Below, piece after piece: positions 1-10,623 of a DNA stretch of 10,623 bases. The stretch is from the NCBI RefSeq assembly GCF_003334815.1, contig NZ_QOWO01000061.1; one strand, written 5' to 3'. Under the pieces are notes generated by a model. That model was not told where the DNA came from, did no database searches, and saw nothing but the letters and a program-made list of their open reading frames with translations. This stretch comes from Escherichia coli. Lineage in GTDB: Bacteria; Pseudomonadota; Gammaproteobacteria; Enterobacterales; Enterobacteriaceae. Made by a program: the position numbers and the translations under genes. Positions within the stretch are counted from its first letter, which is position 1, and each line of letters opens with the position of its first letter.

Positions 1-1
1 A

Positions 2-39
2 GGGGTCGTCTCAGAAAACGGAAAATAAAGCACGCTAAG
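2..39. repeat. 38-bp terminal inverted repeat of a Tn21-subgroup transposon (tnpA-proximal end)
   Basis: Sequence GGGGTCGTCTCAGAAAACGGAAAATAAAGCACGCTAAG at the extreme end. The tnpA stop codon (TAG, complement of 35-37) lies inside it, as is typical of Tn3-family elements. Confidence 0.85.
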
Positions 40-3001
40 CCGGTTGCAGAGGCCGTAGCGGCCTGAACTTCCCCGCGCCGATCTTGGCGCTGCTGCGCCA
101 TAGGTAATCACCGGTCAGGTTGATGTGCTCCCAGCCGAGTGGCGACAGGTACTGCAATAGCGAGTCATCGACGGCATGACCATTGCCGCGCAACGCATGC
201 GCCGCACGCTCCAGGTAGACCGTGTTCCACAGCACGATGGCCGCCGTCACCAGGTTGAGGCCGCTGGCCCGGTAGCGCTGCTGCTCGAAACTGCGGTCAC
301 GGATTTCACCAAGGCGGTTGAAGAACACGGCACGGGCCAGCGCATTGCGCGCCTCGCCCTTGTTCAGCCCGGCATGCACGCGGCGGCGTAGCTCGACGCT
401 TTGCAGCCAGTCGAGGATGAACAGCGTGCGCTCGATGCGGCCCAACTCGCGCAGCGCGACGGCCAAGCCGTTCTGGCGCGGGTAGCTGCCGAGTTTCCTG
501 AGCATCAGCGAGGCCGTCACCGTGCCCTGCTTGATCGAGGTGGCCAGCCGCAGGATTTCGTCCCAATGGGCGCGGACGTGCTTGATGTTGAGCGTGCCGC
601 CGATCATCGGCTTGAGCGCGTCATAGGCGGCATCGCCCTTCGGGATGTAGAGCTTGGTGTCGCCCAGGTCGCGGATGCGCGGCGCGAAGCGGAAGCCCAA
701 GAGGTGCATCAGGGCGAAGACGTGATCGGTGAAGCCCGCCGTGTCGGTGTAGTGCTCCTCGATCCGCAGGTCGGATTCGTGGTACAGCAGGCCGTCGAGC
801 ACGTAGGTTGAGTCGCGCAGGCCGACATTGACCACCTTGGTGTGGAATGGCGCGTATTGGTCGGAGATGTGGGTGTAGAAAGTCCGTCCTGGGCTGCTGC
901 CATATTTTGGGTTGATGTGCCCCGTGCTCTTTGCCTTGCTAGCGGTTCGGAAATTCTGTCCGTCCGATGATGATGTGGTGCCATCGCCCCAGTGCCCGGC
1001 AAAGGGATGCCGAAACTGAGCGTTGACCAGTTCAGCCAACGCTGTCGAGTACGTTTCGTCGCGGGTATGCCAGGCTTGCAGCCAAGCGAGCTTCGCGTAG
1101 GTCGTGCCGGGGCAGGACTCGGCCATCTTGGTCAGGCCCAGGTTGATCGCGTCGGCCAGGATCGTGGTCAACAACAGGTTCTTGTCCTTGGCCAGATCGC
1201 CCGATTTCAAGTGCGTGAAGTGCCGGGTGAAGCCCGTCCACTCATCGACTTCGAGCAGCAGTTCGGTGATCTTGACGTGCGGCAGGACCATGGCTGTCTG
1301 GTCTATCAGCGCCTGCGCGGTGTCGGGCACCGCCGCATCCAGCGGCGTGATCTTCAAGCCCGACTCGGTGATGATGGCATCCGGCAGGTCGTTGGCTGCC
1401 GCCATGCGGTTGACGGTGGCAAGTTGTGCTTCCAGCAGCGTCAGCCGCTCATGCAGATATTGTTCGCAGTCGGTGGCCACGGCCAGCGGCAATTCGCTGG
1501 ACTGCTTGAGGCTGGTGAACTTCTCGGGCGGTACCAGGTAGTCCTCGAAGTCCTTGAACTGGCGTGAACCCTGCACCCAGATGTCGCCCGAGCGCAGGGA
1601 GTTCTTCAACTCGGACAGCGCGCACAGTTCGTAGTAGCGCCGGTCGATGCCGGCGTCGGTCATCACCAGTTTCTGCCAGCGCGGCTTGATGAAGCCGGTC
1701 GGTGCATCGGCTGGCAGCTTGCGGGCGTTGTCGGTGTTCATGCCGCGCAGCACCTCAATGGCATCAAGCACGTTTTTGGCGGCGGGCGCGGCCCGCAGCT
1801 TGAGCACGGCAAGGAATTCCGGTGCATAGCGGCGCAGGGTGGCGTAGCTCTCGCCGATGCGATGCAGGAAATCGAAGTCATCGGGTTGCGCGAGCTTCTG
1901 CGCCTCGGTGACGCTCTCGGCAAAGGAATCCCAGGACATGACGGCCTCGATGGCGGCAAACGCATCGCGGCCTGATTGCTTGGCGTCGATCAGCGCCTGA
2001 CCGATGCGCCCGTACAGACGTACCTTGGCGTTGATGGCCTTGCCTGACGCCTGGAACTGCTGCTGATGCTTATTCTTGGCAGCGTTAAACAGCTTACCCA
2101 GGATGCGGTCGTGCAGGTCGATGATTTCGTCGGTGACGGTGGCCATGCCCTCGGTGGCCAGCGCCACGAGAGTGGCGTAGCGCCGTTGCGGCTCGAATTT
2201 GGCCAGGTCGGCGGGTGTCATCTGGCCGCCCTCGCGGGCAATCTTGAGCAGGCGGTTCTGGTGAACCAGCCGCTCGATGCCGGTAGGCAGATCGAGTGCC
2301 TGCCATGCCTTGAGGCGTTCGATGTGTTCCAGCATATGCCGCGAATTTGGCTTGGCCGGAGACTGGCGCAACCAAGCCAACCAGGTCGTCTTGCCGTTGT
2401 CCCGGCGCTTGAGCAGATCGTCGAGGCGGCGGCGATGCGCGTCCGCCAGTGGTTCGGCCAAGGCGTCGTAGATGCGCCGGTTAGCACGGGTGATCGCCTC
2501 GGCACTCGCCCGCTCGACGGCGTTGAGGGCGGGCAGAATGACCGACTGCCGCCGCAGGTGCCCGATCAAGGCGCTGGCCAGCACGATGCCTTTGTCGGTT
2601 TGCATCGCCAGCTCGGTCAGCATCTGGACGGCCTGCCGGTAATGGCTCATGGTGAAGGGCCGGAAACCGAACACGGTTTGCAGCTCGCTCAGGTGCTCGC
2701 GCCGGGTCTGCTCCCGCTGGCCGTACTCGTTCCAGCTTTCGACGCCGACCTTGAGCTGGTCGGCGACCAGCTTCAACAAGGGCGGGAACGGTAGTTCATC
2801 GACGCCCAGGATGACGCCGGGAAAGCGCAGGTAACAGAGCTGCACCGCGAAGCCCAGCCGATTGGCTGGCCCGCGCCGCTGTCGGATGATCGAGAGGTCG
2901 GTATCGTTGAATGTGTAATGTCGGATCAGGTCGTCCTTGGAGTCCGGCAACGCCAGCAGGCTTTCCCGCTCGGCGGCGGACAGGATGGAACGACGTGGCA
3001 T
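35..3001 (-). CDS. tnpA: Tn3-family (Tn21-type) transposase TnpA, 988 aa
   Basis: Single uninterrupted 2967-nt ORF. Length and sequence recognised as Tn21-type TnpA. ATG at 2999-3001 (complement), stop inside the terminal IR. Confidence 0.96.
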
Positions 3002-3003
3002 AT

Positions 3004-8167: not shown

Positions 8168-8342
8168 CGTCCGTTCGGGCATCGAGGTCCATGTCGGGGT
8201 GGGACGGGCCCGTGGCTTCAAGATCACTTGCAGTCCGACCGCGATGTCTTGGTTGCGCGAGAGGTTGTCGATATCTGTTGATTTGCACCCAAATTTGACC
8301 CGGGATTTGCATTGAATTTTGACCCACCCCTTGTTGTCAGAA

Positions 8343-9128
8343 TTATGTCTCGATTTTCAGTTTGCGGGTCTGTTTTTCCTCCTGCTTATTCTGAGTTGAA
8401 CTGTGTTTGAAGCGGTAACTTTCATTGCCGGTTTCCAGGATGTGGCAGTGGTGGGTTAGTCGGTCCAACAACGCTGTTGTCATCTTTTCATCGCCAAACA
8501 CTCGGCTCCATTCCGAGAAGCTCAAGTTGGTGGTCAGTATCACGCTGGTTTTTTCGTACAGCTTTGAGAGCAGGTGAAACAGCAGTGCCCCACCGGTTTG
8601 GCTAAAAGGCAAATATCCCAGCTCATCCAGAATCACCAAATCGGCATACAACAGACGGTTTGCGATTTGTCCCTGACGCCCAGATGATTTCTCTTGCTCC
8701 AGTGCATTGACCAAATCCACGGTGGAGAAGAAACGCACCCGTCGGTTCAAGTGCATCACTGCTTGTGTACCAATGGCTGTGGCCAGGTGAGTCTTGCCTG
8801 TGCCTGGCCCACCAATCAGCACCACGTTCTGGGCTTGTTCCATGAAGTCGCACCGGTGCAATTGTTTGACCGTGGCCTCATTAACCAGGCTTTGACTGAA
8901 GTCAAAGCCCACCAAGTCCCGATACACGGGGAACTTGGCCACCCGCAATTGATAGTTCACCGAACGTACTTCACGCTCTGCCACTTCAGCTTTAATCAAG
9001 CTGTCCAGCATGGGCAAGGCTTGATTAAATGCTGGTGAATTCTGATTGCCCAACTCCTCAATGGCGTGTGCCATGCCAAAGAGTTTCAAGGATTTGAGGA
9101 TTCTCACATGGCCTTCATGCTGCATCAT
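8343..9128 (-). CDS. istB: IstB, IS21-family ATP-binding transposition helper protein, 261 aa
   Basis: Walker A motif GGPGTGKTH and Walker B region LVILDELGY. Overall similarity to IS21 IstB/DnaC-like ATPases, recognised as the IS1326 type. Confidence 0.93.
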
Positions 9129-10623
9129 GGGCTCTCCTTAAACTGTCATAGCGGTTCACGTTGGCCTGTGGTTCCAATGTCAGCCTTAACCCCTTGGGAA
9201 TTGGAATCGGTTTGGGTGGAGGTTCTTCGGTCAAACGTCCCAACAGATTAAGCACATGCTCCTTCGATGGCTTGCCACACTCCAATGCCAATTCCACAGC
9301 ACTGAGTACCGCACCTTCATCGTGGTGCAATACAAGGGCCAGAATTTCCACCATGTCACGGTCACCGCCGGGGCGTTGCAGCAAGATGGATTGAAGCTTC
9401 TTGAACGCGGGTGGCAATTCAGCAAATGGCGCACCATTGCGCAACGCCCCAGGTTTCTTCTGAAGCACAGACAAGTAATGGTGCCAGTCGTATTGTGTGT
9501 GGCCACGCCGAGCGTGGCCACTGCCAAACAATCTTGGATGCTCGGCAATGTGTTGGCCTTCGGCAGCCATCACCAGCTTGTCTGCATAAATCCGAAGGCT
9601 GATGGCCCTGTTGGCGTAACTGGCAGGAACGCTGTAGCGATTGCCCTCGTGGTGAACAAGGCAGGTTGAAGTGACTCGCTTGGTTTGCTCCACGAATGCA
9701 TCAAAGGCATTGGGTAGCGCCATCAACTCGCCTTGTTCATCGGCAAAGGCCTCTTGCACGGTTTGGTCCAATTCGGGGTGGCGCAGCTCAGACCACAGCG
9801 CTTTGCAGCGATGCTCAAGCCACACATTCAAATCAGCAAGGCTTTGAAAGTCTGGTGCCCCTTGCCACAGGCGTTGGCGGGAATCCTGCACGTTCTTCTC
9901 AATCTGGCCTTTCTCCCAACCCGATGCTGGATTACAGAACTGCGCATCAAACAGGTAGTGGCTGACCATGGCAGTGAACCGCTGATTGACCCTGCGCTCT
10001 TTGCCACGCCCCACCGAATCCACAGCGGTCTTCATGTTGTCGTAGATGCCGCGCTTGGGAATGCCACCGAAGATTTGAAAGGCATGCCAGTGGGCATCAA
10101 ACAGCATTTCATGTTTTTGCTGGTAGTAAGCCCGAAGCACAAAGGCCCGGCTGTGGGCCAACTTAAACTGGGCAATCTGAAGTTTGACCTGTTTGCCCGC
10201 TATGCGGGCAAAGTCCTCACTCCAATCGAATTGGAAGGCTTCGCCACAAGCAAAGCGCAAGGGGATGAAACAACCCTTGCCCGAGGTTTGCGCCTTGAAC
10301 TGTTCGGAATCTTTCCACTGTCGGGCAAAGGCACACACTCGGTCATAAGACCCGGTAAAGCCCAAAGCGACCAAATCCCGGTACATGCTGCGCAGGTTTC
10401 TGCGCAGCTTCTTTGTCTTTTTGTGCTCGGTGGAGAGCCACTGCCTTAACTTGGGCTCAAAAGGACTTAACTTGCCAACGCTGTCTCGCGCTGGGTACTG
10501 CGGTTCAACCACCTTGCTTTGCAAATACTTGCGAACGGTGTTCCTGGACAGGCCGCTTCGTCGGGCTATTTCCCGAATCGACGCACCATCGCGAAAATGC
10601 CAGCGTCGAATTGCGCTCAATAT
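9115..10623 (-). CDS. istA: IstA, IS21-family transposase (N-terminal HTH, DDE catalytic core); 5' end at or just beyond the window edge
   Basis: Long ORF with an N-terminal helix-turn-helix ([19 protein letters not shown]) and DDE-type integrase core. The frame is open to the window end. The first in-window candidate start is TTG at 10618-10620 (complement), and the codon before it is not a stop. Confidence 0.9.

Follow-up and report, generated by a model that had tools for sequence, protein, structure and literature searches.

Joints and base composition in the tnp-proximal part of transposon Tn21 with class 1 integron In2

Content and map of the stretch

The 10,623-bp stretch of DNA analysed here, referred to as the window, is 100% identical to positions 9108-19731 (reverse strand) of the R100/NR1 plasmid (NC_002134.1), and many further enterobacterial plasmids are also 100% identical to it. 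Judged from its sequence, the window covers 10.6 kb on the tnp-proximal side of Tn21, a transposon that carries the class 1 integron In2, in the order IRtnp-tnpA-tnpR-res-tnpM-IRi-intI1-attI1-aadA1-qacEΔ1-sul1-orf5-IS1326. No difference from Tn21/In2 of NR1/R100 was found, the excerpt ending inside istA of IS1326. An earlier description made from the letters alone (the sequence-only reading) had seen a mosaic of G+C content (GC) that matches the module boundaries and fits stepwise assembly from separate sources. The assembly is strongly supported, independently of composition, by target-site duplications, an empty insertion site, homology breaks and a survey of junctions in other genomes; the match between composition and boundaries turns out to be partial.

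The gene map is based on the deposited annotation and on NCBIfam protein-family searches. In the following list, which gives the basis of the assignments in brackets, ORF stands for open reading frame, 5'-CS and 3'-CS for the 5'- and 3'-conserved segments of the integron, and IS for insertion sequence.

1..1, no strand: last base of the 5-bp Tn21 target-site duplication (the same direct repeat lies outside IRtnp and IRmer)
2..39, plus strand: IRtnp, 38-bp terminal inverted repeat of Tn21 (comparison with the inverted mer-end copy in R100)
35..3001, minus strand: tnpA, Tn3-family transposase, 988 amino acids (NF033527, annotation)
3004..3564, minus strand: tnpR, serine resolvase, 186 amino acids (annotation, protein families; WP_000147567.1 in the R100 annotation)
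3565..3689, no strand: res region, 125 bp, AT-rich (GC dip, inverted repeat)
3690..4040, minus strand: tnpM, 3' remnant of urf2M cut by In2 (EAL-domain matches, ORF reconstruction)
4041..4065, plus strand: IRi, 25-bp outer inverted repeat of In2 (exact match, start of Tn402 homology)
4243..5256, minus strand: intI1, class 1 integron integrase (NF011946)
5257..5395, plus strand: attI1 and promoter region of the 5'-CS (core site, Tn402 comparison)
5396..6250, plus strand: aadA1 gene cassette, with the ORF at 5405-6196 and attC to 6250 (core sites, protein family)
6251..6640, plus strand: qacE cassette remnant, first part of the 3'-CS, qacEΔ1 codons 1-94 (Tn402/R751 homology)
6641..8275, plus strand: sul1-orf5 segment of the 3'-CS (change point and homology break at its left edge)
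6641-6706, plus strand: new tail of qacEΔ1 (whole qacEΔ1 6359-6706)
6700-7539, plus strand: sul1
7667-8167, plus strand: orf5/GNAT
8276..10623, minus strand: IS1326 (IS21 family), left end to inside istA (istA/istB families, terminal repeats)
8343-9128, minus strand: istB of IS1326
from 9115, running past the window end, minus strand: istA of IS1326

Tn21 spans positions 59-19730 of R100 (19,672 bp) and is flanked there by a 5-bp direct repeat, TATTA in the R100 orientation, as its target duplication. IRtnp matches the inverted mer-end repeat at 35 of 38 positions, window positions 1-38 with the flanking A included having been compared. TnpA matches NF033527 over its full length (1328.7 bits, cut-off 500), and the 186-residue TnpR is a serine recombinase whose gene is transcribed in the same direction as tnpA, with res upstream. 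IntI1 matches NF011946 over residues 1-337 of 337 (799.5 bits, cut-off 435). The scores for AadA1 (597.6 bits against a cut-off of 587), QacE (206 against 185) and Sul1 (641.5 against 600) all exceed their thresholds, as do those of istA (NF033546, 326.6 against 160) and istB (NF038214, 283.7 against 200), and the matches of orf5 are to GNAT families.

Steps in base composition

The overall GC of the window is 58.4%, and the standard deviation (SD) of non-overlapping 200-bp windows is 0.0587, above that of every one of 1000 shuffles (mean 0.0344, maximum 0.0442). The claim that the profile is not flat thus holds. Sampling noise in short windows judged by eye might be thought sufficient for such an impression, as the binomial SD at 200 bp is already 0.035, single windows can swing by ±7 points, and the res dip taken alone falls below the scan-wide penalised-likelihood threshold. 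Against this stand the excess over all shuffles, change points at p<=0.003 and GC tests between module pairs with p=1e-11 and 3e-11, so that noise as the source of the mosaic deserves next to no credence.

Change points were located by recursive Jensen-Shannon (entropic) segmentation at the permutation level just given, with which optimal partitioning agrees. Penalised-likelihood partitioning at a penalty of 2-3 ln N yields two segments or one, the number depending on the penalty, and permutation segmentation with support intervals was used instead. It divides the window into four domains, from 1 to about 5250 (61.7% GC), from about 5250 to 6654 (50.0%), from 6655 to 8216 (63.8%) and from 8217 to the end (52.5%). 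The three steps between them, with their 2-nat support intervals, are at about 5250 (5058-5338), 6655 (6610-6686) and 8217 (8058-8281). They lie 146, 14 and 59 bp from the true joints, and the probability that randomly placed points would be equally close is 0.0016 if the mean distance is scored and 0.0028 if the maximum distance is.

The sequence-only reading had placed its shifts at 3565, 5396, 6251 and about 8276. The five-segment partition so defined gains 34.1 nats over a flat model, as compared with 58.5 nats for the data-driven partition into four, and only 8276 falls inside a support interval, at 1.5 nats from the best position. No shift exists at 3565, where the 600 bp on either side have a GC of 0.583 and 0.580 (p=0.95). 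This position is one edge of a 125-bp dip, beyond which GC is back to 63.5% at 3690, and it is the start codon of tnpR, where the functional res region borders on the gene, rather than an assembly joint of this element. Nor is there a step at 5396 (0.547 versus 0.523 over 300 bp on either side, p=0.62), where the fit is 4.0 nats worse than at 5250. The step is found about 146 bp further to the left, where the coding region of intI1 ends and the attI1 region has its left edge, because GC is already down to about 52% in the non-coding part of the 5'-CS that holds attI1 and the promoters. At 6251 GC does drop modestly further, from 53.0% to 44.1%, which is significant a priori (p=0.004) but remains below the scan-wide threshold. 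Overall, three of the five assembly joints are recovered; there is no signal at 4041 and a weak one at 6251, that of 5396 is displaced by about 146 bp, and 3565 is a dip.

The largest step in the window was missing from this list, as were the joints at 4041 and 6641-6644. It leads from 44% to 63% GC at 6641-6655 (p=1e-11) and lies inside the 3'-CS, within 14 bp of the end of qacE homology, so that the 3'-CS is not one compositional unit but contains the sharpest step of all. The 3' tail of qacEΔ1 (6641-6706) comes from the GC-rich sul1 segment, and therefore one reading frame crosses this step. The start codon of sul1 (6700) overlaps the end of qacEΔ1, the stop codon of which occupies 6704-6706.

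The qualitative ranking of the modules by eye was correct. The Tn21 backbone has an overall GC of 61.8%, with 63.4% in tnpA and 63.5% in tnpM; the sul1-orf5 segment reaches 63.1%, with 61.7% in sul1 and 65.1% in orf5. The exception among the blocks described as strongly GC-rich is tnpR, which at 57.8% and a GC at third codon positions (GC3) of 0.68 is less rich than that wording implies. As had been claimed, res (40.8%; p=7e-4 against tnpR and p=1.4e-5 against tnpM), the aadA1 cassette (53.0%), the qacE remnant (44.1%) and IS1326 (52.5%) are AT-richer. In the 5'-CS, which has 60.4% overall, intI1 has 61.2% and the attI1/promoter region 51.8%, and the leader of qacE (6197-6358) has 43.2%. Not all non-coding spacers are AT-rich, as 7540-7666 has 65.4% and 4066-4242 has 63.8%. 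The R100 DNA just outside Tn21 has a GC of 45%. GC3 sharpens the contrast, the GC-rich coding modules ranging from 0.70 to 0.83 (tnpA 0.83, tnpM 0.79, intI1 0.72, sul1 0.70, orf5 0.79) as against 0.49 to 0.61 in qacEΔ1 (0.49), aadA1 (0.55), istB and istA (0.61 each).

The tetranucleotide comparison that the sequence-only reading had proposed is less informative. TETRA z-score correlations are around 0 between modules and 0.2-0.35 within them, and are underpowered at lengths of 0.4-4 kb. By dinucleotide signature IS1326 is the most distinct module, with a δ* of 176-269 as compared with 69-92 within modules.

Joints and order of assembly

In2 is an insertion of 11,000 bp. Its outer repeat IRi (4041-4065, an exact match) has its partner IRt at R100 4692-4716, 11,000 bp away, and a 5-bp duplication lies on both sides, TCCAT in the window orientation (4036-4040) and ATGGA in the other. 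Deletion of In2 and of one duplication copy in silico restores urf2M as a continuous EAL-domain ORF of 315 codons, and the 400 bp across the empty site reconstructed in this way are matched at 100% identity by at least six plasmids of Leclercia, Klebsiella and Serratia. One of the empty-site plasmids has the layout mer-urf2M-tnpR with the same TnpR protein and without an integron. In the Tn5060/Tn20-like integron-free backbone (e.g. Leclercia plasmid NZ_CP040894.1, with the same TnpR) mer-urf2M-res-tnpR is identical across the insertion point of In2, and, unlike the window, this backbone lacks In2 and has an intact urf2M.

Homology to Tn402 begins at 4041. Tn402/Tn5090 on plasmid R751 is a class 1 integron transposon of ancestral type with intact qacE and tni genes, which shares with the window the 5'-CS from IRi to attI1 as well as the qacE cassette. 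It differs in carrying dfrB3 and orfD cassettes and a complete qacE, in lacking sul1-orf5 and IS1326, and in having a strong Pc without the GGG insertion that activates the second promoter, P2.

Base composition is silent at 4041, the true joint between backbone and integron. GC is 0.618 and 0.604 on its two sides (p=0.4), or 0.653 and 0.620 within 150 bp of it (p=0.63), because GC is 62-64.5% in the two flanks of In2 as well as at its own two ends. If composition were the only guide, the Tn21 backbone and the integron platform could be assigned to one source without a separate module starting at 4041, the more so as the dinucleotide δ* between backbone and 5'-CS (50-60) is inside the noise within modules and does not distinguish them. 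Such a common source is nevertheless very improbable and, as history, refuted by the paired IRi and IRt, the duplication, the restored ORF and the natural empty sites. Furthermore, the 5'-CS occurs at 99.6% identity in Tn402 on an IncP plasmid that has no Tn21 backbone, and the junction is absent from 30% of the E. coli records in which one or the other side of 4041 is present. The similar GC of backbone and platform may still mean that their donor hosts were similarly GC-rich.

For a survey of the junctions, each joint was placed in the middle of a 400-bp probe and searched for in all 5,426 complete E. coli genomes, with the records that hold either side as denominators. The joint at 4041 is intact in 1344 of 1925 records (70%), that at 5396 in 517 of 3145 (16%; the remainder continue into different cassettes), that at 6251 in 795 of 2833 (28%), that at 6644 in 1821 of 1860 (98%) and that at 8276 in 144 of 406 (35%). 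Partial matches end at the probe midpoint, and the junctions assort independently across these genomes. Together with homology breaks and core sites, the survey confirms 5396, 6251 and 8276 of the sequence-only reading as true structural joints.

The 5'-CS (4041-5397) is 99.6% identical to Tn402 on R751, and the homology ends at 5397, next to the attI1 crossover (GTTRRRY; G|TTAAAC at 5395/5396). The aadA1 cassette that follows consists of a single ORF and its attC and is bounded by the core sites G|TTAAAC and G|TTAGAT (end ...GCG|TTAGAT). Partial database matches break at 5398-5408 on its left and at 6252-6258 on its right. Beyond it, 6251-6640 is 100% identical over 390 bp to the qacE cassette of Tn402/R751, with divergence from 6641-6644. 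IS1326 begins at 8276. Its repeated terminal motifs, at 8281-8302 and 8305-8328, have their partners at the far end of the element in R100, where IS1353 is nested between the two IS1326 ends; all but the left part of IS1326 lies outside the window.

Taken together, these data are best read as a nested mobile element built by successive, independently documented events in which each module keeps the base composition of its lineage, a reading held with a probability of roughly 0.92. In this history a Tn3-family mercury transposon formed the backbone first. An integron of the Tn402 type then transposed into urf2M, leaving IRi at 4041 and the 5-bp duplication, and the aadA1 cassette (5396-6250) was integrated at attI1 by site-specific recombination. 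Replacement of the end of the resident qacE cassette by the sul1-orf5 segment, with the joint at 6641-6644, produced the 3'-CS, and IS1326 inserted last at 8276. Each piece would retain the GC, and above all the GC3, that it acquired in its original lineage, the differences presumably reflecting the mutational bias of the donors; homogenisation would have been prevented because the elements are young and their transfer between hosts is too rapid and too recent. A joint is then visible only if its neighbours differ, as at the transitions from 5'-CS to cassettes, from qacE remnant to sul1 and from 3'-CS to IS1326, and is hidden if they are alike, as between backbone and integron platform (both about 61-64%) or between the aadA1 cassette and the qacE remnant (both AT-richer). 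Target duplications and empty sites were sought as a test of this history, and both were found.

This order agrees with the published accounts. A chromosomal integron is described as captured by a Tn402-like transposon that was then inserted into a mercury transposon, with sul1-orf5 acquired later under deletion of the end of qacE (PMC5460862), and Tn5060 is regarded as the integron-free ancestor of Tn21 (bioRxiv 10.1101/2021.05.26.445724). For sul1/2 the GC is 60.8%, in agreement with the 62.0% of the Rhodobiaceae that have been proposed as donors (PMC6335563).

Several points weigh against the nested-assembly reading, at least in so far as it draws on composition. A control of presumably single origin and equal length, the trb operon of R751, also exceeds the shuffle null (SD 0.050) and has one significant change point, in that GC rises from 64.4% to 74.8% at about 27419-28240 (3' end of trb, in annotated trbL); the tra region of R751, used as a second control, has no change point. 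An i.i.d. shuffle is therefore ruled out as a sufficient null, and GC steps alone do not prove separate origin; the argument is carried by homology breaks and insertion signatures. The GC3 of tnpR is below that of tnpA in all three family members compared (0.68 and 0.83 in Tn21, 0.79 and 0.88 as well as 0.70 and 0.76 in the relatives), and some heterogeneity is thus gene-specific and not historical. Finally, oligonucleotide signatures lack power at the lengths of these modules, only IS1326 being clearly distinct, and are kept as weak support.

The same observations feed an alternative in which the GC pattern is mainly functional, AT-rich stretches being binding, recombination and promoter sites together with a membrane-protein gene, GC-rich stretches being ordinary coding DNA, and the profile saying nothing about origin. 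The deepest dips are indeed non-coding functional sites (res, the attI1 region and the qacE leader), the first step is at the coding end of intI1 and not at the crossover at 5396, the change point of trb arises in a single-origin operon, and the diverged relatives share not only the lower GC3 of tnpR but also AT-richer res-like spacers. However, the coding modules are up to 34 points apart in GC3, a measure on which protein constraint has little influence, the step at 6655 falls inside the continuous reading frame of qacEΔ1 close to an exact homology break, and the spacers at 7540-7666 and 4066-4242 are not AT-rich. As an account of the whole profile the functional alternative is unlikely, though far from negligible. 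It is largely refuted for the three major steps by GC3 and the homology breakpoints but keeps its force for the short dips of res and attI1. More generally, the short AT-rich dips (res, attI1, the qacE leader and the IS ends) are better explained by their function as non-coding recombination or promoter sites than by foreign origin.

Tn21/In2 is among the best-dissected mobile resistance elements. Its stepwise nested assembly is textbook material, and everything found here is already known. The value of the analysis is one of method. Even in a mosaic that is fully understood, GC change points miss joints between modules of similar GC and are confounded by AT-rich functional sites, and base composition alone is therefore unfit for drawing the borders of modules in resistance regions, which are placed exactly by homology breakpoints, inverted repeats and target-site duplications. 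As in the detection of acquired DNA such as genomic islands by GC or GC3, modules keep a donor-like GC, for example about 61-62% in sul1 (PMC6335563), but here the recovered joints are offset by 14-146 bp and a functional dip at res is added that is no assembly joint of this element.

The tnpR-res region and further observations

An inverted repeat, TCAGGTT...AACCTGA, is centred on 3685/3686 at 3673-3698, thus reaching 9 bp past the dip at res, and looks like a candidate for res site I. The Pseudomonas aeruginosa plasmid pP9Me1 (NZ_CP118639.1, 5190-5800) encodes TnpR and TnpA proteins identical to those of the window, and its DNA is 100% identical at window positions 3440-3693 (the 5' end of tnpR and res), which is the extent of the aligned stretch. 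From 3694 into urf2M identity is only about 80%, as it is for both urf2M and mer of this plasmid. The switch can be bracketed to 3686-3694, in the outer arm of the inverted repeat. This pattern is consistent with an exchange of the tnp module, mediated by resolvase, between related transposons. As the switch lies within the inverted repeat of res, res is therefore a point of module exchange in the family, and the exchange point is at the edge of res opposite to 3565.

A Tn501/Tn1696-like relative (NZ_CP043927.1) is about 90% identical across tnpA and 95-99% identical at 3001-3200, and its identity is 64-78% from 3300 to 3900, i.e. in the 5' part of tnpR, res and urf2M. Among the three elements compared, Tn21 has the largest difference in GC3 between tnpA and tnpR. 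The backbone is thus not perfectly uniform, which is attributable partly to the gene itself and possibly to recombination. It is conceivable, if somewhat less probable than the opposite, that the transposition module of Tn21 is a hidden mosaic in which the 5' part of tnpR and res (roughly 3250-3693) derive from a lineage of lower GC than tnpA, bounded by a crossover at res site I and by a joint inside tnpR. If true, this would probably be covered already by the older literature on recombinant transposons of the Tn21 subgroup.

An ORF of 204 amino acids with a TTG start (3690-4304, minus strand) runs from inside the integron end across IRi into the remnant of urf2M. It was considered as a separate gene and rejected. 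Its only family matches are to the C-terminal part of EAL-domain phosphodiesterases, and the simplest reading is a read-through of the truncated urf2M (tnpM) frame.

The cassette promoter Pc is located inside intI1, with its -35 box at 5141 and its -10 box at 5164, and P2 is located at 5260-5288. The sole differences of the 5'-CS from Tn402/R751 are a G at 5142, a G at 5167 and the GGG insertion at 5279-5281. The -35 box of Pc accordingly reads TGGACA as opposed to TTGACA in Tn402 and the -10 box TAAGCT as opposed to TAAACT, and the insertion gives the pair TTGTTA...TACAGT a spacing of 17 bp. This is the cassette promoter configuration of a weak Pc combined with an active P2, which is typical of In2.

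The attC of aadA1 (6199-6250) aligns with the attC in front of the qacE cassette of Tn402 (R751 33736-33786), with about 11 differences in 52 nucleotides. Because of this likeness BLAST homology to Tn402 starts about 50 bp before the true boundary of the 3'-CS, and many database matches start at window position 6209.

At its right end the 3'-CS varies among the E. coli records. Matches to a probe from the 8076-8275 side stop at 8179, 8271 or 8275 and then continue into unrelated DNA, e.g. umuC, which suggests that the DNA downstream of orf5 has been truncated or interrupted by insertions several times independently.

IS4321 and IS5075, elements of the IS110 family, have as their target the 38-bp terminal repeats of transposons of this family. 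In the window, IRtnp is uninterrupted. IS110-family elements of this kind (IS4321/IS5075) are annotated beside the tnpA end of the integron-free Tn21 backbone (8732-9736) and of the relative in NZ_CP043927.1 (1-257), and they occur twice in the annotation of R751, at 10389-11393 and 13470-14474.

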